A DNA stretch of 42,059 nucleotides from Escherichia phage HHU8. Numbering within the stretch: position 1 is the stretch's first letter; each line of letters starts with the position of its first letter. This document shows, piece by piece, positions 16,727-42,056 of the stretch. The DNA lies in sequence record PQ641135, one strand, 5' to 3'. The notes below the pieces were generated by a model. That model was not told where the DNA came from. It saw only the letters and a list, made by a program, of their open reading frames with translations, and did no database searches. A program made the position numbers and the translations under genes.

Positions 16727-19159
16727 TCAGCAGAAAAACTTGCTTGATTGTTTCACAAGTTGGATATCCAGATTGCCACGCTCAGGTGCAACAGCATTGT
16801 ATCGTACAGCAAGTTGTTGAATCGGGTCATGTTGCTCATACATCTGCACGAACTTTTCACGAATGACCTTGTGGAGTAACCCGGCATGAGCTGCTGCCAC
16901 CCCGAACGAATCGTGGATAGACACCATGTACACCCCGTTATTCCACATCTCCCACAACACCTTCATCATGTGGCTGGCATCCATAGCGTGTACGAAATTC
17001 GGAGCAATCGCAGCGGCACACTTCCTGCCATCAGGCTTGTCCAGATACTCGCGCAGCTTAATGCTGTGGATACCCATGAGGTTGATGTTATTGAGCATCG
17101 TCTCCTTGCTGGCTTGATACAGGTTCACCACTCGCAGCCCTGACGGTGCAATGATTTCCACGTACTCACCGTTGGCTGCCGCCTCTACCGCGATAGCCTG
17201 CAACCATGCCATCAGCTCTGCCGCCTTCGGCACAACGCGAGGGATTGCATTCCACATGAACTCTGCGATGAACTGCGCACACTCCAGTAGGCTCTTGCCG
17301 TCCGGCAGCTTGACCCGGTTCTCACGCAGGTACAGGCAGTAGTAGTCCACCATCCCGTGTCGGGTTGCCCCGTACACGTATGTCATCACTGGCTTCTTAG
17401 CCATCGCCCGGACAATGCCGATTGAAACAAGCCACGAACCCATCTGCGTCGGTGACTGCGCTTCACTATCTTCAAGAGCCTGCATCGCCGCTGCTGCCGT
17501 CTTGAGATATATGTCTGCTTTTCTTCCCACGCTATTGATAAGATTGACAGCAGCACCTCCAACTTCATCTCGTAGCATCGCACTGAGGTGCTGGAGTCCT
17601 GAACAGGTAGCATCCCATTGCGTGACCACTCGGCAGGGATAAGTCTCAGGATTTCCTGAGTCGATAGCGCGAATGAGTTCAACAGAGGCAGCCCACGCGC
17701 TGATAGGGCTATCGGCCTCTGACCAGAACGAATCAAATGCCTCTGGAAGACGGCACGCCTCACGTAGTCGGGGGAGTGTCTTGTCCGTCCACGCCGCCCG
17801 GTCGTCGAAGTCTGTTGCGTCGTAGCCGAAGCAATTCGCAACATGAACCTTGAGCCAGAACAGCCCCTCAGTTCCGAGAGCCACTGGTTCCGCAAGCTCA
17901 AGCAGCGCTCGCACCGCGTCGATAGACTGAGGATTAAGGGTCGAAGAATAATAAATTCGGCCCCGCGTATCGGCGTAAGTCGGGAGATAAATCCTATCGT
18001 ACTGCGCATACCTGTCTGCCTCTTTGACTGCACCATTCAGCGCCAGCATCTGTGACGTGAACTTACGCAACTCATTGTAATACAAGCGAGTCTTCACCTT
18101 GTACTCATGAGCTTCGGCATCCATCTGCTGCTGCATCTCTGGTGGGAACTTGCTGATGTACTGTGCAAAGCTCACACCAGCCGGGATGGTAAACGGAAGT
18201 GTAGGTTCACGAGGCGGCACAGGCAGCCCCATAACGCCTGTACGGTTCGTTCGCAGGAACTCCAGTACCATTGGGTTAACTCGGTACGGAACGCTGCTGA
18301 GCATCATACACGGCTCTATAACGGGGGTAGGGTCAACGTTCAATGCACGATACCCTTTATGGTTCATGCGGCTCATTACCCGGTACATCGCTGCCTGCCC
18401 ATCTGAATGCCACATACCGCTGCGACCGTTAGGTGCAATCTGCTTCGGCGGGATAATCAGTGGTGGGCAGCACATGCCATCAGCACGCGGCATGTCCAAC
18501 CAGTCATTCATCGTAGCCAGCACATCCTCGTGCAATGCAAAGTGTGCCGTACCGCGCTGGCGCTGGTTGCCTCCGACACGAATCGTGGACACCAGACCAG
18601 TTGGCTCAACGCACTTCATCATAAGCTTGCCAATGGTAATCAGCGCACGCTGCGGCAGCACATCAATCTCCACCCCAACGTTCGCCGCCGACGCACGCGC
18701 TTTGTTGTAGACGTGGTTCGCTGACTTCGAGCGAGACTTCTTCACGTCCTGCTTAACGCGCTCCATGTACGCCGCCTGCTGCGGCCCGGTCTGCTTCGCC
18801 CGGAGGTACACCACCTCAGCCATCAGTGCCTTGCCCATGCTCTTGAGCAGACTCAGTACCGCCTGCTCCGACGCAGCACCGGACACCGCCATGCTCAGTG
18901 CAAGAGAGGCACACGCTTTGGTGCCAATCTCACGCATGTACGTCCGGTACTGCGCACCATACCCACGGGTCGTTTCGCTCAGGGTTTCTTGCATCGCAGC
19001 TTCGACCAGAGGATAAGCCTCAACCATCATACGCTGGAGCAACGGCACCGACCCGGCGCGGCCACTGGCCATCGCCTCTTTGATATTATCCAGCCAGCCC
19101 TCGCGGTGTCTGGCTCGCGCTTCTTCTTCAAGTCGAATCTGCTCTGCAAGTAAATCCAC
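16727..19159 (-). CDS. single-subunit DNA-dependent RNA polymerase (T7 RNAP family)
   Basis: 810-aa ORF with hallmark motifs: DATCSGLQH (motif A), VMTYVYGAT (motif B region), HDSFG (motif C). Start is GTG at 19157-19159, 5 nt after a perfect AAGGAG. Confidence 0.9.
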   Translation of the reverse strand: MDLLAEQIRLEEEARARHREGWLDNIKEAMASGRAGSVPLLQRMMVEAYPLVEAAMQETLSETTRGYGAQYRTYMREIGTKACASLALSMAVSGAASEQAVLSLLKSMGKALMAEVVYLRAKQTGPQQAAYMERVKQDVKKSRSKSANHVYNKARASAANVGVEIDVLPQRALITIGKLMMKCVEPTGLVSTIRVGGNQRQRGTAHFALHEDVLATMNDWLDMPRADGMCCPPLIIPPKQIAPNGRSGMWHSDGQAAMYRVMSRMNHKGYRALNVDPTPVIEPCMMLSSVPYRVNPMVLEFLRTNRTGVMGLPVPPREPTLPFTIPAGVSFAQYISKFPPEMQQQMDAEAHEYKVKTRLYYNELRKFTSQMLALNGAVKEADRYAQYDRIYLPTYADTRGRIYYSSTLNPQSIDAVRALLELAEPVALGTEGLFWLKVHVANCFGYDATDFDDRAAWTDKTLPRLREACRLPEAFDSFWSEADSPISAWAASVELIRAIDSGNPETYPCRVVTQWDATCSGLQHLSAMLRDEVGGAAVNLINSVGRKADIYLKTAAAAMQALEDSEAQSPTQMGSWLVSIGIVRAMAKKPVMTYVYGATRHGMVDYYCLYLRENRVKLPDGKSLLECAQFIAEFMWNAIPRVVPKAAELMAWLQAIAVEAAANGEYVEIIAPSGLRVVNLYQASKETMLNNINLMGIHSIKLREYLDKPDGRKCAAAIAPNFVHAMDASHMMKVLWEMWNNGVYMVSIHDSFGVAAAHAGLLHKVIREKFVQMYEQHDPIQQLAVRYNAVAPERGNLDIQLVKQSSKFFC

Positions 19160-33582: not shown

Positions 33583-33867
33583 TTAGACCTCGAAGCTACC
33601 AATCGCCTCGTAGCCCTGAGCAGGCATGTTCTCAGCCGCGCTAGCGTTCAAGGTGCCTCCGTTCAGCAGGAACGCCAAGTCACCCATGCGGCTGATATCA
33701 GATTCCAGCGATGGCAGCGCAGCCTTAGCATCTTCCACCGTGTTCAGTTCCGGTACTTCTTTGCAGCCAGAGATACACAGCGCCATGTTGCCTTCTTCGA
33801 ATCCATCGCCCACGACTGCAACGATATCTTTTTGGGAAGCAGAGTAGTAAGCAGTTACTTTAGCCAT
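33583..33867 (-). CDS. small acidic early protein (member of the hairpin/box-preceded array)
   Basis: 94 aa from the ATG at 33865-33867 (GAGGG upstream); preceded by hairpin 33905-33928 and box GGCATGATTGCC 33890-33901 (plus-strand view). Confidence 0.45.
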   Translation of the reverse strand: MAKVTAYYSASQKDIVAVVGDGFEEGNMALCISGCKEVPELNTVEDAKAALPSLESDISRMGDLAFLLNGGTLNASAAENMPAQGYEAIGSFEV

Positions 33868-33889
33868 GATAAAACCCTCAGTTAGTTGC

Positions 33890-33928
33890 GGCATGATTGC
33901 CCTACAGCCCACCGCTACGGATGGGCTG
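33890..33928 (-). promoter_or_regulatory. intergenic hairpin plus GCAATCATGCC box (unit 1 of 4-5)
   Basis: Minus strand: stop, hairpin CAGCCCA-N10-TGGGCTG, then GCAATCATGCC, then ~20 nt, SD, ATG at 33867. Confidence 0.45.
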
Positions 33929-34194: not shown

Positions 34195-34470
34195 TTACTC
34201 GAAGTCAGCCGCGTCTACGTTGTCGGCTTCGAAGCTGGTGATGAAGCTCGGCTCCAGTTCGTTCAGCTTCTCGACTGACAGCTTGCCACCTTGAATGGCA
34301 ATCAGCATACCGCCGAGGTCTTCCAGAGCCTCGCGCACTTCACCGATTACTTCATCGTGGCTTGCGTCCGGCTTCGGCTGCACGCCCAGCGACGGTGCGT
34401 TATCTTTGGTCTCGCCTACGATGAAAGCCAGACCGCCGTTGTTCAGTGCAAACACATTGATAGTGGACAT
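34195..34470 (-). CDS. small acidic early protein (member of the hairpin/box-preceded array)
   Basis: 91 aa from the ATG at 34468-34470; acidic C-terminus (EADNVDAADFE); preceded by box GGCATGATTGCC at 34492-34503 and a GC-rich hairpin. Confidence 0.45.
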   Translation of the reverse strand: MSTINVFALNNGGLAFIVGETKDNAPSLGVQPKPDASHDEVIGEVREALEDLGGMLIAIQGGKLSVEKLNELEPSFITSFEADNVDAADFE

Positions 34471-34491
34471 AATAAATCCTCGATAGGTTAG

Positions 34492-34530
34492 GGCATGATT
34501 GCCGCATTGCCCCCTCGCAAGGAGGCAACA
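34492..34530 (-). promoter_or_regulatory. intergenic hairpin plus GCAATCATGCC box (unit 2)
   Basis: Box (plus-strand view GGCATGATTGCC) at 34492-34503, preceded on the minus strand by an imperfect GC-rich hairpin (TTGCCTCC...GGGGGCAA); ATG of the downstream gene at 34470. Confidence 0.45.
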
Positions 34531-34535
34531 AGGTA

Positions 34536-34877
34536 TCACGCGTCGAAGTCGATATCGTCTTCCGCGTCGTACTCTTTGAGCACGTTGATAACCACATCTT
34601 CACCCAGTGTTTCGGTGTCGATGTAGGAGTGGCCGCCCATGAGAGCGAACAGTTCCAGCGGGAAGCCAGACTCGCGGAACTCTGCGAAGCTGGTGTCGTT
34701 ATCGAAGTGCGCCACGATAGCGTCAGGTGAATCGCCGTCGCGGTTGCGGCCTGCAATCAGGTAACGCTCGTCGTCCTGAGTGAAGCCAACCCACTCGCTG
34801 GTGATAGCGTCAGCCGGAACGCCTGCACCAAAAGCAGAGGCAGCGATGTTGGACAGCAGAACCAGTTTGATAGACAT
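34536..34877 (-). CDS. small acidic early protein (member of the hairpin/box-preceded array)
   Basis: 113 aa from the ATG at 34875-34877; acidic C-terminus (EYDAEDDIDFDA); preceded by box GGCATTATTGCC at 34900-34911 and hairpin 34915-34937. Confidence 0.45.
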   Translation of the reverse strand: MSIKLVLLSNIAASAFGAGVPADAITSEWVGFTQDDERYLIAGRNRDGDSPDAIVAHFDNDTSFAEFRESGFPLELFALMGGHSYIDTETLGEDVVINVLKEYDAEDDIDFDA

Positions 34878-34899
34878 AGTAAAACCCTCAATTGAGTAA

Positions 34900-34937
34900 G
34901 GCATTATTGCCACGCTGCGCCCTCGTTGAAGGCGCAG
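34900..34937 (-). promoter_or_regulatory. intergenic hairpin plus GCAATAATGCC box (unit 3)
   Basis: Box at 34900-34911, hairpin CTGCGCC-N9-GGCGCAG at 34915-34937; ATG of the downstream gene at 34877. Confidence 0.45.
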
Positions 34938-36163: not shown

Positions 36164-36556
36164 CTACGCCTCTACTACCCAAAATTGCGCACCATCGTAA
36201 GTCCAAGCAGTGTACTGCCCGGCTTCCATCTCGGCCTCAGTCTTACTGACTAACTTGCCAGCAGGCTTGCCCGGACATGGTGAATCCATGAAGATTGCAT
36301 CATCATCATCAGTCACTACCATGATGCAGTCCTGTTCAAGAGCCTTACAGAACAGCTTAATAGCCTGCCTGATTTCATAGATTCCATCGACAGGAAATAC
36401 CATGCTCAACTCGTACTGATTGTCGAACTTGCCTGTCAGTGTGACCGGAATCACTCCGAACATATCCTGCACCGTTCGCAGTGCCTTGCAATGAAGCGCC
36501 AGATTAACACACTCAGCATTGTTCTGACGATATGCGCTTGCATAGATACGGTACAT
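36164..36556 (-). CDS. hypothetical protein, first early gene downstream of the sigma70-type promoters
   Basis: 130-aa ORF; ATG at 36554-36556 with GGAGAA upstream; lies ~450 nt downstream of the tandem promoters. Confidence 0.5.
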   Translation of the reverse strand: MYRIYASAYRQNNAECVNLALHCKALRTVQDMFGVIPVTLTGKFDNQYELSMVFPVDGIYEIRQAIKLFCKALEQDCIMVVTDDDDAIFMDSPCPGKPAGKLVSKTEAEMEAGQYTAWTYDGAQFWVVEA

Positions 36557-37014
36557 AGTTATTTCTCCAGTTGTTGGCTATTTTCAGGTGGATAGTGAAC
36601 CCATTGTGACGCGCCGTACAGTCTGCACTCGTTGGCATTGATTGGCTTGTCGGATTCACTACCCTGAAAAATCGCCCCGCCCATTTCGCGCTGTGAGTAT
36701 TGTCTTCACTCACTCTCAGGAGTCTTCCAGCAGTCCGGCTCACCGTCACCAGCTTATGCCTACCTACCCGCTATACTCCGCGCCTTATAAGACGTTTGGG
36801 ATTGTGCTGATACTGCGCTGCGTCTATCGCGCTTCTCCGTTCCCTTGCATCGGGCGCTACCCCTACGGCGTTAGCATTGTTGCGATACCGTTGCCTTTCG
36901 GCGATGCCTCACCCAGTTCCAACCTGCGGCGGATACCCAGTGAGCCGTGACACTACGCGGCCAGTTTGCGTTCACTCAGAGCAGGATGCTTTCCATCCTT
37001 TCAACTCGGTGCTG

Positions 37015-37043
37015 ATTACAACACAGTGTATTCAGCTTGTCAA
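37015..37043 (-). promoter_or_regulatory. sigma70-type early promoter P3 (TTGACA - 17 bp - TGTAAT)
   Basis: Minus strand TTGACA (37038-37043), 17-nt spacer, TGTAAT (37015-37020) with TGT upstream; third tandem copy. Confidence 0.6.
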
Positions 37044-37083
37044 CTACTTTTTACTTCTGACTGACTGGCTTACTGCCTGTCAA

Positions 37084-37112
37084 TCTGGTGTGTATTACAG
37101 CATACTCGTTCC
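37084..37112 (-). promoter_or_regulatory. sigma70-type early promoter P2 (TTGACA - 17 bp - TGTAAT)
   Basis: Minus strand TTGACA (37107-37112), 17-nt spacer, TGTAAT (37084-37089) with TGC upstream; same architecture as P1. Confidence 0.6.
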
Positions 37113-37229
37113 ATCCTGTCAACCGATTTAATCAGCGCCCGTTCTGAGATGATTAGACCGTACCAGTTTGCCTGCGTGGGTTTTAACGTCTTTATCCATG
37201 ACTGTTTGGCTTGCTGGTTGACTGGAAGC

Positions 37230-37258
37230 ATTACAGCATAGTGAGTTTGCCTTGTCAA
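37230..37258 (-). promoter_or_regulatory. sigma70-type early promoter P1 (TTGACA - 17 bp - TGTAAT)
   Basis: On the minus strand: TTGACA (plus coordinates 37253-37258), exact 17-nt spacer, TGTAAT (37230-37235), with TGC immediately upstream of the -10 hexamer (extended -10-like). Points toward the early genes. Confidence 0.6.
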
Positions 37259-37330
37259 CACACCAGATTGTTAAAGAGCAGTGTTACCGTTCAATCTTGT
37301 CTACTGGGCTAGTGCCTTTCGACGTGATGA

Positions 37331-37360
37331 ATTACAGCACATAACCAAAACAGTTTGCAA
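37331..37360 (-). promoter_or_regulatory. possible weaker sigma70-type promoter P4 (TTGCAA - 18 bp - TGTAAT)
   Basis: Minus strand TTGCAA (37355-37360), 18-nt spacer, TGTAAT (37331-37336). Confidence 0.35.
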
Positions 37361-37381
37361 GTATTATTTTCAAGAAAAGTG

Positions 37382-37479
37382 ATAAGTTACTGTAATCATT
37401 GAGATTAAAGTTTGATTGGATAATCACAACACTGGATAGAATACCGTTATCAGATAGGTCATAAGTTACTGTAATCATT
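37382..37479. repeat. AT-rich region with a 19-bp perfect direct repeat (ATAAGTTACTGTAATCATT x2)
   Basis: Identical 19-mers at 37382-37400 and 37461-37479 within an AT-rich block between the T-depleted tract and the sigma70 promoters. Confidence 0.5.
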
Positions 37480-37487
37480 AGATAATT

Positions 37488-37508
37488 ATGAAAGTGTCTA
37501 TAGTGATA
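37488..37508 (-). promoter_or_regulatory. promoter-like element with T7-class core (minus strand reads TATCACTATAGACACTTTCAT), upstream of the sigma70 promoters
   Basis: Minus strand carries ...GATACTATATCACTATAG|ACAC...; the core TCACTATAG matches the conserved -8..+1 of T7/SP6/K11-group promoters. It sits just upstream of the tandem early promoters, comparable to the T7 left-end phage promoter. Perfect 21-bp inverted copy of 16678-16698. Confidence 0.4.
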
Positions 37509-37519
37509 TAGTATCGCTA

Positions 37520-37960
37520 GATACGCAGAGCGAGCGCGGCGCAGCCGAAACAAGCGAGCGCGGAACGTCAACGGATGGAATCCGACAGGATGACAGGCGG
37601 CAGACAGTGAACGCAGTAGGACAGTAGACAGAGTGTAACAGCAGGTAGCAGAGCATGACGCGCAGAGCTGGAGGCGCAGACAGTAGACCAGCAGACAGGA
37701 CAGCACCACGCAGCACCACGCCGCGCCACGAAAAGAGACAGATACCCGCCCGACCACAGGCAGCACGCAGCACCGCGCAGCCAGCGCAGAGCGTCCCCAT
37801 AGGACAGCACCGCACAGCACAGCCAGCAGGACAGCACCGCGCCGAGTGATGAAACGCGACACGCACGAGCTATACCGCACGCAGGCAATCCTCTTGACGC
37901 GCCGCGCAGCGCACGCGAGCAATTATCGCGCACGTCGCGAGGCTAAACCGCGCACACGCT
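37520..37960. repeat. thymine-depleted, short-repeat-rich non-coding tract (candidate terminal-repeat / concatemer-junction region)
   Basis: About 440 bp in which the plus strand is nearly devoid of T and is built from degenerate short repeats (AGGACAGCACC at 37697, 37800 and 37828; GACAGTAGAC at 37625 and 37681; many ACGCAG/CAGCAC units). No credible ORF; lies between the last gene (endolysin) and the early promoters. Confidence 0.5.
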
Positions 37961-38072
37961 ATGGGGGCACGCGCGGTCATTTGGGTCGAGGGAGGGGCAC
38001 GTACAAATAGTCAATTTTCAAGCCGGGGTATTGCACCCACGGCCTGTTCATTGCATCAGCTTTTGGATACCC

Positions 38073-38609
38073 CTACAGCGTCGCACAGTAAGCGCTACAG
38101 CGTTTTGCACGGGCAACCAAGGCATCCCTATAGCGAACCACTGTCGGGGCTGTAGAAGCCTTTAGGAACGCAATACGAAGGTCACAGATGGCTGCTGCTG
38201 CGGAGTGAGGTTCCAGACGTTTGGCTGCTGCCACGGTAGCAGGGCCAATAACCCCGTCTTGTGCAACACCGCATACCCGCTGTAGAGCTTTCGCAGCACG
38301 GGAGACGCCGGAGTTGACGCCGTAATCAAACACGGCACATGCAATCGCAGGGTGAAGCTCGTCACCTCTGATGGGGCTGTAGTAGTCCCGGCGATAGATT
38401 GCCTCGGCTTGCTCTTTGGTGAGCTGCTTGATAGGCACACACACAGTGCCGCCAAGCCCAGTAGGGACACCACAAGCTCTACCATCCAGCTTCCCATCAC
38501 GAGCGTCACTAATTCCATGGTTGGTCTCCCCTCCAGTGTCACCGGGCAGCTTGGTGTACCCACCCTCGGCCAGCCCGGTGAACTTCATACAGATTTCAAA
38601 GTTAGTCAT
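38073..38609 (-). CDS. endolysin: glycoside hydrolase family 108-like N-terminal domain plus PG_binding_3-like C-terminal domain
   Basis: 178-aa ORF; N-terminal GLAEGGYTKLPGDTGGETNHGI fits the GH108 lysozyme motif pattern (EGGY...D.GG.T..GI), and the C-terminal GVAQDGVIGPATVAAAKR fits a peptidoglycan-binding domain. No signal peptide, so holin-dependent. ATG at 38607-38609 overlaps the upstream stop (TAATG). Confidence 0.75.
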   Translation of the reverse strand: MTNFEICMKFTGLAEGGYTKLPGDTGGETNHGISDARDGKLDGRACGVPTGLGGTVCVPIKQLTKEQAEAIYRRDYYSPIRGDELHPAIACAVFDYGVNSGVSRAAKALQRVCGVAQDGVIGPATVAAAKRLEPHSAAAAICDLRIAFLKASTAPTVVRYRDALVARAKRCSAYCATL

Positions 38610-39826: not shown

Positions 39827-39991
39827 CTAAAGTACCACCACCAGATTTGTGATGGCAGTTTCAATGTCAGCAGCCTGAGCTGCCGTCACTGTACGGGTAC
39901 CATTGATGAAGCGTTGAGTCACGTTAGCTGCGATACCACAGCGATAACCAAGCTCGTAACGCTGAGCATCAGTGATGGTGGTGATGGACAT
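39827..39991 (-). CDS. hypothetical small protein; reading frame continues 57 codons past its TAG stop
   Basis: 54 aa from the ATG at 39989-39991 (GGAGAA upstream; ATG overlaps the terminase stop as TAATG). Its TAG at 39827-39829 is followed in frame by an open stretch down to TAA at 39656-39658. Confidence 0.35.
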   Translation of the reverse strand: MSITTITDAQRYELGYRCGIAANVTQRFINGTRTVTAAQAADIETAITNLVVVL

Positions 39992-41751
39992 TATTTGATT
40001 CTCCGTCGCGTGCCGCGCACAGGTTTGTGGCTGCGCCACTTCGAGTCGTCGTAACCCATCGGGTTGGCAAGGAACTCTCGTGCAGCAGCAGTCTCACGCT
40101 TGGCGGCTTCTTCATGTTCGTCCTGCTGTAGCACCTCAGCGTGCAGGTACACGGCAGCAGACAGGGTTTCAATGCGGTCGTCGTGGGGGATGGATTGACG
40201 GTCTTGTGTCAGGTTCTGGAGCTGCCAGAACAGACTGAACTCACGACCACCGTTATTCATGCCCCGGCACAGCCGCAGGTCTTCTTCAACAACACACCAA
40301 TGCACAACGACACGGTGGCGCTGCATGATTGGGCCGAGGCGGTTGATGATACGCACCTCTTTCTGACCGGACGAGTACACGCCATCACAGCCAATGGTCA
40401 AGCTCTGACGCTTAACCTCACCTCGGTACATGTTGGTCACGGTGCCGTGGCCCATGTTATCCTCAATGACCAGTCGCTTAACCCCGGTTTCAGCAAGCCA
40501 CTCTACCGCCGCCTTGATGTTTTCCTCCGTCTGACCGCCGTGGTAGACGTGCATACCGATGACGTGGATAAACGGGCCGACAGAAGCGGTGGCAATGATA
40601 ACTGATTCGTCCGACCCACCACCAGCAGGGTCAAGAAACGCCGAGGTATTTTCGAATGGTACATAAGTGTCCGAGAAATCAGCAGCCAAGAATAGCTGAG
40701 CGCGAGCCAGTGGGAAATCCAATGGCAGCTCGGCGGCATGGCGCGGGTGGTTCGACCAATGCAGAACCTCCGGCGCAGACTGCGTAGAGCCGTGGAAGAA
40801 GATTAAGTCTTTGAGATGTAACGTCTGTTTGAGCGCATCCGACAGCGACGTGTCCAGCATGAACTGCAACTGGAAGCCTGCCTGCTGGTAGTCTCGTTCG
40901 TTCTGCAACTGCTTCTCTTCGGAGTAGCGTTGCGGGTCAGTCTGTGCGCCACGGTTCCCAAGGATACCGTACCCAGTACGCAGTTCAGGGTGGCCATCCA
41001 TCTTCTGCTTAATCCACGGGGCCAGACAGCCGCCGTAGCGTTCTTCTTCCTCAACCGTTGGGAAACGACCGGGCCAGATGCGAACGTCGAAGCCACGCTG
41101 CGGGAGCGTGTTGTAGATGGAGTCCTGAGTCTGCGGTGTACCAAGGTACAGAATCTCTGCACCATCATTGGCGATAGCCGCGAACTCTTTGGTCAGAGTG
41201 TTGATACGGGCGCGGTTGGCAGGAGAGCTACCGTTACTGGTAGTCTCCACGTCATCGGCAATCAACAGCGATACGTGGTTCCCCTGCAACTGGCCGAAGA
41301 TACCAACTGCTTTGACAGAGGGCTGTTTGTCAGGAATACGAAATGCGTGGTGTACGTCGAAACCGTCCGTATAGGAGGTACGTGCGCCAGCGCGAGTTTC
41401 AGGGCGCAGCCATTCCAGTCTGTCCCATTGCATAATGGCAGACACGATGGCGTGCGAGAGCGTACCCGCATAGTCGTCAGAACCAGATACCAGCAGCACA
41501 GTGGCGTTAGGCATCTGGATGAACTCATACAGAGCACGGGCAATGCCGATGGTGGACTTAGCCTCACCGCGCTGAGCCATGACGCACTTGTTCTTTAGCG
41601 TCCGGTCGGCCATGTAGCGGCCAATATCGAGCTGCATTTCAGTGAGGTCAAAGCCCAGCCATGCGAAGTAGTCATGCAGGAACAGCGGGAAGTTGTTCTC
41701 GTAGTGGGCGCGAACAATTCCTGCCATCACCATGCGGCGTTGTAAATCCAT
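39991..41751 (-). CDS. terminase large subunit (T7 gp19-like)
   Basis: 586-aa ORF, the same length as T7 gp19; N-terminal region resembles T7-group terminases; follows the small-terminase gene with a TAATG overlap. Confidence 0.85.
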   Translation of the reverse strand: MDLQRRMVMAGIVRAHYENNFPLFLHDYFAWLGFDLTEMQLDIGRYMADRTLKNKCVMAQRGEAKSTIGIARALYEFIQMPNATVLLVSGSDDYAGTLSHAIVSAIMQWDRLEWLRPETRAGARTSYTDGFDVHHAFRIPDKQPSVKAVGIFGQLQGNHVSLLIADDVETTSNGSSPANRARINTLTKEFAAIANDGAEILYLGTPQTQDSIYNTLPQRGFDVRIWPGRFPTVEEEERYGGCLAPWIKQKMDGHPELRTGYGILGNRGAQTDPQRYSEEKQLQNERDYQQAGFQLQFMLDTSLSDALKQTLHLKDLIFFHGSTQSAPEVLHWSNHPRHAAELPLDFPLARAQLFLAADFSDTYVPFENTSAFLDPAGGGSDESVIIATASVGPFIHVIGMHVYHGGQTEENIKAAVEWLAETGVKRLVIEDNMGHGTVTNMYRGEVKRQSLTIGCDGVYSSGQKEVRIINRLGPIMQRHRVVVHWCVVEEDLRLCRGMNNGGREFSLFWQLQNLTQDRQSIPHDDRIETLSAAVYLHAEVLQQDEHEEAAKRETAAAREFLANPMGYDDSKWRSHKPVRGTRRRIK

Positions 41752-42056
41752 TAGTGCATCACCCCGCTATCTTCTGCAATCTTGTCGATTGCTGCTTTCA
41801 AGATTGACTTGCGCTCTGCTTCCGTGCGCTCGCCGTCGAGTTGTGCCTGCAATGCCAGCAGGTCGTCAGCATCACCTTTGTCGGCTGCTATGCCGTTATC
41901 CTTTAGGAACTGTCGAAGCACAGATAACTCAGCAGCAGGCATTGGGGCGATGATGTTGCCATCATCGTCCTTTTTCATGGATGCATGAAGCCGTTCTGTG
42001 AGGTATTCGACCAGCGCCCTATGCAGGGCGTCGAGTTCCTTGTTAGTGCCAGCCAT
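41751..42056 (-). CDS. terminase small subunit (T7 gp18-like)
   Basis: 101-aa ORF with ATG at 42054-42056, charged helical protein directly upstream of the large terminase. Its Shine-Dalgarno (GGAG) lies at window positions 2-5, i.e. across the circular junction. Confidence 0.55.
   Translation of the reverse strand: MAGTNKELDALHRALVEYLTERLHASMKKDDDGNIIAPMPAAELSVLRQFLKDNGIAADKGDADDLLALQAQLDGERTEAERKSILKAAIDKIAEDSGVMH

Follow-up and report, generated by a model that had tools for sequence, protein, structure and literature searches.

A thymine-depleted tract in Escherichia phage HHU8 is the probable non-coding genome-end region of Bonnellvirus

The thymine-poor tract at 37520-37960 of Escherichia phage HHU8 is best read as the non-coding genome-end region of Bonnellvirus, seen as a collapsed concatemer junction; from sequence comparison we put the probability of this reading at roughly 0.85. 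The window, that is, the whole stretch of DNA analysed here, is the HHU8 record (PQ641135, 42,059 nt), placed by taxonomy and synteny comparison in Bonnellvirus, T7 supergroup. All HHU8 genes lie on the minus strand and the record is circularly permuted; below, the sense strand is the minus strand, in gene direction, and an A-poor sense strand is the same thing as a T-poor plus strand. The result will not surprise a T7 specialist; this is a known kind of genome-end region.

Thymine makes up 7.0% of the plus strand at 37520-37960 (31/441), whereas the genome averages 23.3%. Of all 441-nt segments in the 42,059 bases, T is lowest here (minimum at 37519, z = -5.95); elsewhere in the genome the next-lowest value is 15.9%. 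The AT skew of the tract is +0.5 to +0.7, and a 40-nt running count sets the T-poor limits at ~37510 and ~37975-37989. The sequence-only reading had described a plus strand almost free of T for ~440 bp, lying between the last late gene and the early promoters; the depletion is the genome minimum, its coordinates were right to within ~30 nt, and the endolysin and the promoter-like repeats do flank it.

The tract is thus bounded by a GH108 endolysin on one side and by an AT-rich zone, promoter-like repeats and an S-adenosylmethionine (SAM) lyase on the other, all on the minus strand (Table 1). Relatives' records likewise annotate homologues of the last late gene as endolysin, and label those of the SAM lyase SAMase. 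Both terminase matches, PF11123 (gp18-like small subunit) and PF22530 (gp19-like large subunit), exceed the curated cut-offs, and the junction is the expected substrate of these T7-type subunits. The promoter-like repeats form conserved blocks in the 10-genome alignment and are presumed to be early host-polymerase promoters. A sigma-70 consensus scan of 36500-38300 called no promoter, missing the repeats because the -10-like element TGTAAT has G at its second position, so the promoter reading comes solely from the recurring TTGACA-N17-TGTAAT pattern. A candidate T7/SP6-type phage promoter at 37498-37505 (sense CACTATAG) was set aside: with 3 copies in the window where 2.7 would be expected, its motif does not form a promoter family.

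Table 1. Features of the HHU8 junction and of flanking genes (window coordinates; sequences in sense orientation, a slash marking the predicted cut)
Feature	Position	Strand	Basis or remark
T7-type terminase small subunit	41751-42056	-	Pfam PF11123, E = 2e-17
T7-type terminase large subunit	39991-41751	-	Pfam PF22530, E = 4e-23
GH108 endolysin, 178 aa, last late gene before the junction	38073..38609	-	Pfam PF05838, E = 7e-22
Spacer, 83 nt, endolysin stop to predicted left end	37990..38072	-	normal composition
Spacer block GCCTGTTC	38042-38049	-	invariant run, 10-genome alignment
Spacer block CAATTTTCAAGCC	38012-38024	-	invariant run, 10-genome alignment
Predicted left-end cleavage context CCTCCC/TCGACCC	37985..37995	-	cut between 37990 and 37989
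CCCCCATAG motif, 23-31 nt from predicted end	37959..37967	-	counterparts at other phage ends
End-proximal part of repeat, conserved, GC-rich	37846..37989	.	genome-wide maximum of alternating purine-pyrimidine (CG/CA) runs
Predicted direct terminal repeat, ~234-235 bp	~37754-37756..37989	-	column-by-column alignment to J8-65 repeat; inner boundary ~+/-5 nt
Conserved island GGGTATCTGTCTCTTTT	37731..37747	-	candidate RNA-polymerase pause/termination element, just outside repeat
ATCTGTC	37737-37743	-	inside island
TATCTGTC and T-run	island region	-	candidate pause-signal elements
Left-end unique array, degenerate short repeats (CTGTC, TGCTG, CTGCG), T-free, sense A-free	37520..37730	-	composition and motif counts
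AT-rich zone, 68% A+T	37300..37519	-	composition
Two 28-nt direct repeats inside AT-rich zone	37373-37400 and 37452-37479
Four promoter-like repeats, TTGACA or TTGCAA, 17-18 nt spacer, TGTAAT	37015..37372	-	repeat family and direct reading
SAM lyase (anti-restriction), first early gene	36164..36556	-	Pfam PF23780, E = 2e-25

The case for genome ends comes from phage J8-65 (Bonnellvirus J865, KM247287), which is homologous and syntenic with the HHU8 tract and carries an exact 259-bp repeat at both ends of its record (repeat_region 1-259 and 40723-40981; A 6.9% on the sense strand). This repeat aligns within the tract, to 37756-37989, so that the tract divides into a direct terminal repeat of ~235 bp and ~235 bp of left-end short-repeat array. 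The J8-65 record begins TCGACCC, which aligns to HHU8 37989-37983. The HHU8 cuts are accordingly placed, as predictions from a relative only 66% identical across the junction and with ends known from GenBank annotation alone, between 37990 and 37989 and at ~37754. J8-65 further resembles HHU8 in its CCCCC(A/G)TA motif at 23-24 nt, its T-poor composition and an island beyond the repeat, followed by an AT-rich zone, promoter-like repeats and SAM lyase; it differs in repeat length (259 bp against the predicted ~234) and in many filler indels. The window holds no second copy of the predicted repeat (its longest direct repeat is 41 nt), the single copy being attributed to collapse in assembly. No contig starting or ending at the predicted termini was found among phage records, IMG/VR or assemblies encoding an identical endolysin, where breaks fall in the AT-rich/promoter repeats or at arbitrary points. 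In the literature searched we found no paper describing the J8-65 end mapping, and nothing that dealt with the termini of Bonnellvirus or with skewed composition at the ends of phiKMV-like phages. For another phage, JG068, run-off Sanger sequencing has been used in this way on the terminal repeat (PMC3765740).

Conservation around the predicted cut is consistent with this placement. The 11-nt block GTCGAGGGAGG at the cut is invariant in 10/10 genomes, and the same context recurs, together with an A-poor tract and the island, in LIMEzero, three IMG/VR contigs and four further assemblies. The motif CCCCRTAS lies 24 nt from the end in HHU8 (predicted) and J8-65, 27 nt in T7, phiKMV and KP34, and 29 nt in SP6, hence at 24-29 nt in six ends that are mapped or annotated, that of HHU8 being predicted by homology. 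The earlier proposal of a terminal repeat or concatemer-junction region is supported by homology: the J8-65 repeat, the invariant left terminus and the CCCCRTAS spacing speak for it, with the refinement that only the endolysin-proximal ~37754-37989 is the predicted repeat and 37520 to ~37753 is unique left-end sequence.

These regularities also bear on the alternative that the tract is intergenic slippage filler with no role in the ends, the termini lying elsewhere or the DNA being permuted. Its middle parts are indeed hypervariable and indel-rich, its short motifs differ from genus to genus, and no ends have been mapped in this clade, all of which would suit filler. However, two genera show little or no variation in the cut-site context and the island, the J8-65 repeat occupies exactly the homologous place, the terminase belongs to the T7-type family that is associated with exact terminal repeats, and the distance-from-end motif is common to five other phages with mapped or annotated ends. 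Moreover, composition is kept as the sequence changes, which slippage of arbitrary motifs alone would not achieve. We consider filler very unlikely.

Just outside the predicted repeat, the 20-nt bin 37730-37749 that holds the conserved island is 70% invariant, with hypervariable stretches on both sides. The element within it starts 11-13 nt past the predicted repeat boundary and is followed by CTCTTTT, and so agrees in position and T-richness with the class II signal described for T7 RNA polymerase (10.1101/2021.01.11.426313; 10.64898/2026.02.12.705533), for which a pause role in T7 packaging has been described (PMC3276506). Positional counterparts are ATCTGTT at 161 in T7 (repeat 160) and at 174 in SP6 (repeat 174); in J8-65 the element stands 13 nt after the repeat and reads ATCTATC rather than the ATCTGTC of HHU8, and LIMEzero-like phages have CTCTAYC at this place. 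The exact class II core is ATCTGTT preceded by A, C or T, and the HHU8 element, T-ATCTGTC, agrees with the T7 core at only 6/7 positions; for T7 RNA polymerase, any base change in the core is reported to abolish the signal (10.1101/2021.01.11.426313). The HHU8 polymerase, by position the 810-aa ORF at 16727-19159, is not the T7 polymerase. The island was also flagged as a weak terminator-like site. By analogy with the counterparts in T7 and SP6, we infer that the phage polymerase may pause here. Genome-wide avoidance of the motif on the sense strand, considered as a sign of a terminator, was not significant, either for ATCTGT (7 against 10.4 expected) or for ATCTGTY (2 against 4.4).

The island is followed by the short-repeat array. 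Sense-strand counts are 11 for CTGTC, where composition predicts 1.2, 10 for TGCTG (1.2 predicted) and 11 for CTGCG (1.4 predicted); AGGACAGCACC is found at 37697, 37801 and 37828, GCAGACAGT at 37600 and 37676, and CAGCACCACG as a threefold array at 37701-37730. The short degenerate repeats named in the sequence-only reading are therefore present and above what composition predicts, although Tandem Repeats Finder scores them at just 34-46. Array length differs between strains, with 80 gap columns at 37710-37729 in the 10-genome alignment. As in arrays of the T7 type, a motif of 5-7 nt is present in many copies, strand-asymmetric and directly after the left repeat, with sense A at 6-8%. No matching array stands directly before the right-end repeat, where there is only the 83-nt spacer. 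We infer a role for the array at the junction; no account of the function of such arrays beside T7-type terminal repeats was found in the papers searched. On the T-poor strand GCA is ~3-fold enriched and GTC and CTG are depleted, largely as a result of composition, and the idea that the GCA enrichment marks primase sites was dropped for that reason.

The T7 junction consists of a 160-bp terminal repeat, ATCTGTT and a CCTAAAG short-repeat array, reportedly named SRL by Dunn and Studier in 1983. T7 and HHU8 share one order: repeat, pause-type element at the inner boundary, strand-asymmetric array, AT-rich zone, host promoters and an anti-restriction first gene. They also share the CCCCCATAG motif, ~25 nt from the end in T7, and a T7-type terminase. 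The arrays themselves have no sequence homology, that of T7 being G-poor and A-rich, not A-free. T7 has a second array before its right-end repeat and phage promoters near both ends; neither was found in HHU8. In the Salmonella phage SP6 (174-bp repeat), GGGCTATCTGTT straddles the repeat boundary, the HHU8 equivalent being GGGTATCTGTC; a CCTTAGT array follows the repeat, a G-rich repeat gives way to a C/T-rich array, as in HHU8, and CCCCATAG lies 29 nt from the end. SP6 belongs to another subfamily, is less depleted of A (13-17%) and has its element overlapping the boundary instead of 13 nt beyond it. Among the phiKMV-like phages, with repeats of 414 bp (phiKMV), 298 bp (LKA1) and 216 bp (KP34), the sense strand is A-poor in phiKMV and LKA1 (2-15% per 100 nt) and somewhat less so in KP34 and LIMEzero. 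As in HHU8, this poverty spans the repeat and 100-400 nt beyond in the phiKMV- and LIMEzero-like groups, and a T-run lies just past the boundary (TGCCTCTTTTGCC in LKA1, CTCTACCTCTTTT in LIMEzero-like phages). The LIMEzero group also shares the CCTCCC/TCGAC context. Unlike HHU8, the phiKMV-like and LIMEzero-like phages carry unrelated motifs (CCTGG, CTCTC, CTAGT) and no ATCTGT core.

The tract itself is ordinary for the T7-like group, and its one-sided base composition is marked and conserved. Across 10 genomes the T-poor strand stays at 6.8-8.9% T despite 66-90% identity and many indels, so it is composition, not sequence, that is apparently maintained: a three-letter composition, with a sense strand nearly without A, is kept while the sequence is replaced through insertions and deletions. 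Sense-strand A-depletion is common to LIMEzero, phiKMV and LKA1 and is weaker in KP34 and SP6; no motif shared between genera was found in the A-poor tracts, which have composition alone in common. The sense-strand G-C skew drops across the repeat boundary in 9/9 compared genomes, though in KP34 the drop is seen only 150 nt past the boundary.

Such persistence raises the possibility that the A-free sense strand is itself selected, beyond marking the ends. Three benefits can be envisaged. The first-entering DNA would lack motifs that need A and T on one strand (most restriction sites, -10 elements, stop codons); exposed single strands of the repeat would stay poorly structured and anneal into concatemers; or a G-rich transcript upstream of the pause would favour an RNA-DNA hybrid, opening the repeat so that it can be cut or copied. 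Although their motifs are unrelated, Bonnellvirus, LIMEzero-like phages, phiKMV and LKA1 all keep the asymmetry, which is weaker in KP34 and SP6; the array at 37520..37730, as single-stranded DNA, folds weakly for its GC content (z +1.7 to +3.0); the sense-strand G excess of the repeat falls beyond it; and 36900-38072 contains no EcoKI or EcoBI site. On the other hand, the depletion of six-base palindromes is not significant (2 found, 2.9 +/- 2.1 expected), few restriction sites are expected anyway in ~470 nt, the end-proximal 120 nt are highly structure-prone rather than structure-poor, and the G excess is modest (+0.18). Nor does the supergroup follow one base rule: the array of T7 is skewed differently, being poor in G, and the GAP227 record begins with a sense strand poor in T. 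Selection on the strand as such seems unlikely to us, if less so than filler. Equally doubtful is the broader proposal that near-absence of one base is selected and functionally required at phiKMV-like, LIMEzero-like and Bonnellvirus ends, with the island as a lineage-specific class II equivalent having a different core.

The same composition accounts for the minus-strand reading frames of the tract. ORFs of 196, 122 and 121 aa exist there and cover all three frames; they had already been called spurious, and we reach the same judgement. Hypothetical-protein CDS are annotated over the homologous tract in Kc261, Lidtsur, forsur, ROV85 and glasur, and in keeping with such annotation at least one ORF could in principle encode a real protein. 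However, the three frames all bear long overlapping ORFs with just 1-3 stop codons each, because the strand is almost without A and every stop codon contains A. Only 0-23% of the indels between the window and its relatives are divisible by three, under the one third expected by chance, the translations are low-complexity strings of Cys, Trp, Arg, Leu and Ala, and no PHROG matches were found for the tract ORFs. ORF lengths and positions vary from record to record, and the tract takes in the homologue of J8-65's non-coding terminal repeat. With neither frame conservation, protein-like composition nor family matches, a protein-coding tract is effectively refuted. We also weighed whether low complexity had misled sequencing or assembly, since assemblers typically err in repeat- and GC-rich sequence where coverage is discontinuous, and the usur, glasur and BHUENT7 records are broken in or near the tract. 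Homologous tracts built in the same way nevertheless appear in J8-65, IMG/VR contigs, Logan assemblies and 19 phage records that come from several hosts, laboratories and platforms, and this recurrence in independent assemblies refutes an artefact.

The GC-rich small hairpins once proposed at 37895-37976 did not hold up. This segment is in the top 1% of genome windows by absolute fold energy, but it folds no better than dinucleotide-preserving shuffles (z -0.36 and +0.38) and is structure-prone only because of its composition; indeed, no specific hairpin there, in the repeat or in the array folds better than shuffles. The segment is more aptly characterised by its alternating purine-pyrimidine (CG/CA) runs, which cluster more densely there than anywhere else in the genome. 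Alternating runs of at least 8 nt take up 42% of the bases in the end-proximal part of the repeat, compared with 3.6% genome-wide (99.95th percentile). In J8-65, alternating runs reach 20 nt between positions 35 and 127 from the end, whereas phiKMV is without such a cluster. The 83-nt spacer has a weak hairpin (-10.5 kcal/mol, z -1.07). The search for known RNA families in the region gave a lone chance match to a miRNA model (E = 0.46), and protection of the ends by Chi was discarded, as the sense strand of the tract carries neither Chi nor a one-mismatch Chi.

By analogy with T7 and SP6, a mechanism can be proposed for the genome-end region. In gene direction, the junction would comprise the endolysin stop, the 83-nt spacer, the cut CCTCCC/TCGACCC, one ~235-bp repeat, the island GGGTATCTGTCTCTTTT with its pyrimidine/T-run, ~210 nt of strain-variable short repeats, the AT-rich zone, host-type early promoters and the SAM lyase. 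Replication would yield head-to-tail concatemers in which each junction has a single repeat. On its way out of the late genes, phage RNA polymerase would cross the repeat and pause at the island, and the T7-type terminase would cut at both repeat boundaries; with the repeat duplicated, each packaged genome would have it at both ends. On infection, the left end would enter first, presenting the early promoters.

For HHU8 and ~20 Bonnellvirus records that were deposited permuted and without ends, these results supply predicted ends and a predicted repeat length, and annotators gain a point at which to linearise Bonnellvirus genomes. Several deposited "hypothetical protein" genes are artefacts of the A-free strand. 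The junction layout of T7 and SP6 (repeat, pause-type element, strand-asymmetric array) appears to reach a distant branch of the supergroup, where conservation extends to base composition and three small islands but leaves out most of the sequence. The Bonnellvirus junction may thus offer a clean system for asking what purpose short-repeat arrays serve beside T7-type repeats, and would permit the generality of polymerase pausing at junctions to be tested.

The region matches 19 phage records at 66-90% identity, all of them Bonnellvirus (Autographiviridae/Autoscriptoviridae) and including J8-65, Lidtsur and "-sur" coliphages, Kc261, RZ4, ROV85 and LF82-23. All long ORFs of the window lie on the minus strand, here the sense strand, along which left end, right end and inner boundary are read. 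Since both window ends fall within coding sequence and no long repeat is present internally, the window is a collapsed, circularly permuted assembly of a linear genome. The four promoter-like repeats past the tract (see table) look like strong early host promoters; a consensus promoter scan made no call on them, owing to a G in the second position of the -10-like element, where sigma-70 promoters nearly always carry A. The 28-nt repeat, whose copies lie between the tract and these promoter-like repeats and are kept in relatives, may be a protein-binding site. Further into the early region, each copy of a 41-nt repeat terminates in a small early gene's ribosome-binding site and its start codon, and may serve in RNA processing or as a promoter element. 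GATC sites (Dam/MboI/DpnI) are absent from the 42-kb genome, where roughly 150 would be expected, and so are CCWGG sites (Dcm/EcoRII), where roughly 80 would be; this is very strong site avoidance, complete here, of a kind known for T7-like coliphages.

Features around the thymine-poor tract, and genes deposited over its counterparts in relatives
Feature	Record	Positions	Strand	Basis
T7-type small terminase	window	41751-42056	minus	Pfam
T7-type large terminase	window	39991-41751	minus	Pfam
GH108 endolysin, final gene ahead of tract	window	38073-38609	minus	Pfam
AT-rich zone (68% A+T, two 28-nt repeats), between tract and lyase	window	37300-37519		
28-nt repeat AGA(A/T)AGGT(G/C)ATAAGTTACTGTAATCATT, two copies in AT-rich zone	window	37373-37400 and 37452-37479		
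Four promoter-like repeats TTGACA/TTGCAA-N17-18-TGTAAT, TGY ahead of each	window	37015-37372	minus	
S-adenosylmethionine lyase, first gene past tract	window	36164-36556	minus	Pfam
41-nt repeat GGCAATCATGCC...GAGGGTTTTATCATG, three copies in early region	window	33861-33901, 34463-34503 and 34871-34911	minus	
Deposited "hypothetical protein"	Kc261 MW250275	41017-41556		
Deposited "hypothetical protein"	Lidtsur MK629528	41053-41460		
Deposited "hypothetical protein"	forsur MN850617	25940-26455		
Deposited "hypothetical protein"	ROV85 PP526764	23520-24086		
Deposited "hypothetical protein"	glasur			

Thymine accounts for 31 of 441 nt (7.0%; genome mean 23.3%) in the tract, 37520-37960, which is the lowest-T 441-nt window of the whole sequence (z = -5.95; runner-up elsewhere 15.9%), with an AT skew of up to +0.7. 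A 40-nt running count places the T-poor stretch, A-poor on the sense strand, at ~37510 to ~37980, and the depletion described in the sequence-only reading was thus accurately located. The short repeats it named are also present. Their arrays are weak by Tandem Repeats Finder (scores 34-46); on the sense strand CTGTC, TGCTG and CTGCG occur 11, 10 and 11 times, against 1.2, 1.2 and 1.4 expected from composition.

We considered whether the tract is protein-coding. Each frame of its minus strand is interrupted by just 1-3 stops, and overlapping minus-strand ORFs of 196, 122 and 121 aa together occupy the three frames; as there is no stop codon without A, few are expected in any frame of an A-poor strand. 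Indels divisible by three make up 0/6 to 2/9 of those separating the window from close relatives and 4-5 of 22-23 of those separating it from the J8-65 clade. The translations are of low complexity, rich in Leu, Ala, Arg, Cys and Trp, and have no PHROG match. On these grounds a coding role was rejected, and the ORFs are spurious, as had been suspected. The "hypothetical protein" genes deposited inside the tract (window 37332-37933, minus) in five relatives' records are almost certainly artefacts, because an A-poor strand can hardly encode a stop codon.

The Bonnellvirus J8-65 (KM247287) has an annotated repeat_region at 1-259 and 40723-40981; the two copies do not differ, and sense-strand A makes up 6.9% of them. 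The J8-65 concatemer junction, rebuilt from both record ends, was put into an alignment with the window and eight other genomes (ten in total). The first bases of J8-65, TCGACCC, align to window 37989-37983 (minus), falling within GTCGAGGGAGG (37985-37995), which is invariant in 10/10 genomes, and the inner boundary of its repeat aligns to ~37756 (within ~5 nt either way, as this zone is variable). Because the J8-65 repeat ends align there, the terminal repeat of the window genome is predicted to be ~234 bp long, at 37756-37989. Homology therefore supports the earlier proposal of a terminal repeat or concatemer junction, with two corrections, one of which concerns the hairpins (below); the other is that the predicted repeat covers just the half of the tract next to the endolysin, and 37520 to ~37753 would be unique left-end sequence. 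The cut-site context CCTCCC^TCGAC(C/A)C (^, cut) also occurs in LIMEzero, in three LIMEzero-like IMG/VR contigs and in four further assemblies encoding an identical endolysin. The distance of the motif CCCC(A/G)TA(G/C) from the left end is near-constant in the six genomes compared, at 24 nt in the window (from the predicted end) and J8-65, 27 nt in T7, phiKMV and KP34, and 29 nt in SP6. As a separate observation, the LIMEzero record (FR751545) starts 40 nt upstream of the CCTCCC^TCGAC context and extends no further than the stop codon that closes its last CDS, without a repeat at the right end; the physical end therefore probably lies elsewhere than at the deposited start, and the terminal repeat has probably gone unannotated.

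The junction is a patchwork in which conserved stretches (37730-37749, 37770-37796, 37850-37890 and 37930-38024) are separated by hypervariable, indel-rich filler, with 80 gap columns at 37710-37729 alone. One conserved island, 37731-37747 (GGGTATCTGTCTCTTTT on the sense strand), starts 11-13 nt past the predicted repeat boundary, and its J8-65 counterpart, GGGGCTATCTATCTTTTTT, lies at the same offset, 13 nt after position 259. In T7, whose record has a repeat of exactly 160 bp, ATCTGTT starts directly after it at 161; in SP6, with a repeat of exactly 174 bp, GGGCTATCTGTT straddles position 174. ATCTGTT is the core of the T7 RNA polymerase class II pause/termination signal, natural at the T7 concatemer junction (10.1101/2021.01.11.426313; 10.64898/2026.02.12.705533), where pausing has been linked to packaging start via gp18/gp19 (PMC3276506). 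The island matches this core at 6/7 positions in the window and 5/7 in J8-65, and reads CTCTAYCTCTTTT in LIMEzero-like phages. Because the match is incomplete, we rejected the island as a strict T7 class II signal; where it lies and how it is oriented, together with its T-run and richness in pyrimidines, would fit a functional counterpart for a different polymerase. No description of the island was found in the searchable literature.

The pause element is followed by an array of CCTAAAG in T7 and of CCTTAGT in SP6, a layout like that of the window with its CTGTC, TGCTG and CTGCG units. Each genus examined has motifs of its own (CTCTC in LIMEzero, CCTGG in phiKMV and LKA1, CTAGT in KP34); what the arrays have in common across genera is strand asymmetry and a drop in G-C skew. 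Counted per 100 nt, A on the sense strand amounts to 4-11% in phiKMV (about 800 nt), 2-15% in LKA1 (500 nt), 6-14% in the LIMEzero record (positions 101-600) and 5-12% in J8-65 (500 nt), whereas KP34, SP6 and T7 show weaker depletion. Sense-strand G-C skew drops across the inner repeat boundary in 9/9 genomes compared, in KP34 only from 150 nt beyond it; in the window it runs from +0.18 through -0.03 to -0.22. T7 reportedly has a second, right-hand array, whereas the window has none ahead of the right-end repeat, only an 83-nt spacer. The record of GAP227 (NC_020078, Cronosvirus) begins with 200 nt in which the sense strand has little T (6-14%), is rich in purines and carries (CCCAGAGAG)-type repeats, a polarity opposite to that of the A-poor tracts of phiKMV-like phages. 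The searchable literature yielded no description of the compositional asymmetry.

The GC-rich hairpins proposed at 37895-37976 did not hold up, as dinucleotide shuffles of this segment fold as well as it does (z -0.36 and +0.38). Against the rest of the genome, the internal T-free part, 37561-37860, shows weak folding on the T-poor strand given its GC content (corrected z +1.5 to +3.0), and the end-proximal 120 nt are within the 1% most stable genome windows in absolute terms. Alternating purine-pyrimidine (CG/CA) runs reach their genome-wide maximum at 37846-37989 (42% of bases vs 3.6%). In J8-65 the corresponding place has alternating (TG/CG) runs that reach 20 nt, and some such runs occur in LKA1 and LIMEzero and none in phiKMV and T7.

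Evolution of the end region is much faster than that of the neighbouring endolysin gene. Phages encoding an identical endolysin (L046, L048-L050) are 83-88% identical to the window across 37250-38110, with 54-95 gap positions. Because the junction diverges by 12-17% plus gaps, yet tract A is held at 6.6-8.1% in these phages, composition seems to be maintained while sequence turns over. The candidate reasons for the A-free composition, which would be a rival or additional explanation of the tract, found no support in a significant test.

Taken as a whole, the comparisons support the tract as a T7-supergroup phage's concatemer junction with its terminal repeat. What is demonstrated is where the tract lies, its composition, its pattern of conservation, that it is non-coding, that it is homologous to a verified repeat, and that a T7-type terminase is present; a mechanism can be proposed from T7 biology. 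Concatemers would carry one repeat per junction; late transcription would cross the repeat and pause at the island; cutting by the terminase would take place at CCTCCC^TCGACCC as well as near 37754, with duplication of the repeat. At infection the left end would lead the way into the cell, with the early promoters and the anti-restriction lyase behind it. The genus's type species already carries such a terminal repeat in its annotation, and the compositional asymmetry and the conserved island are modestly interesting leads rather than surprises.
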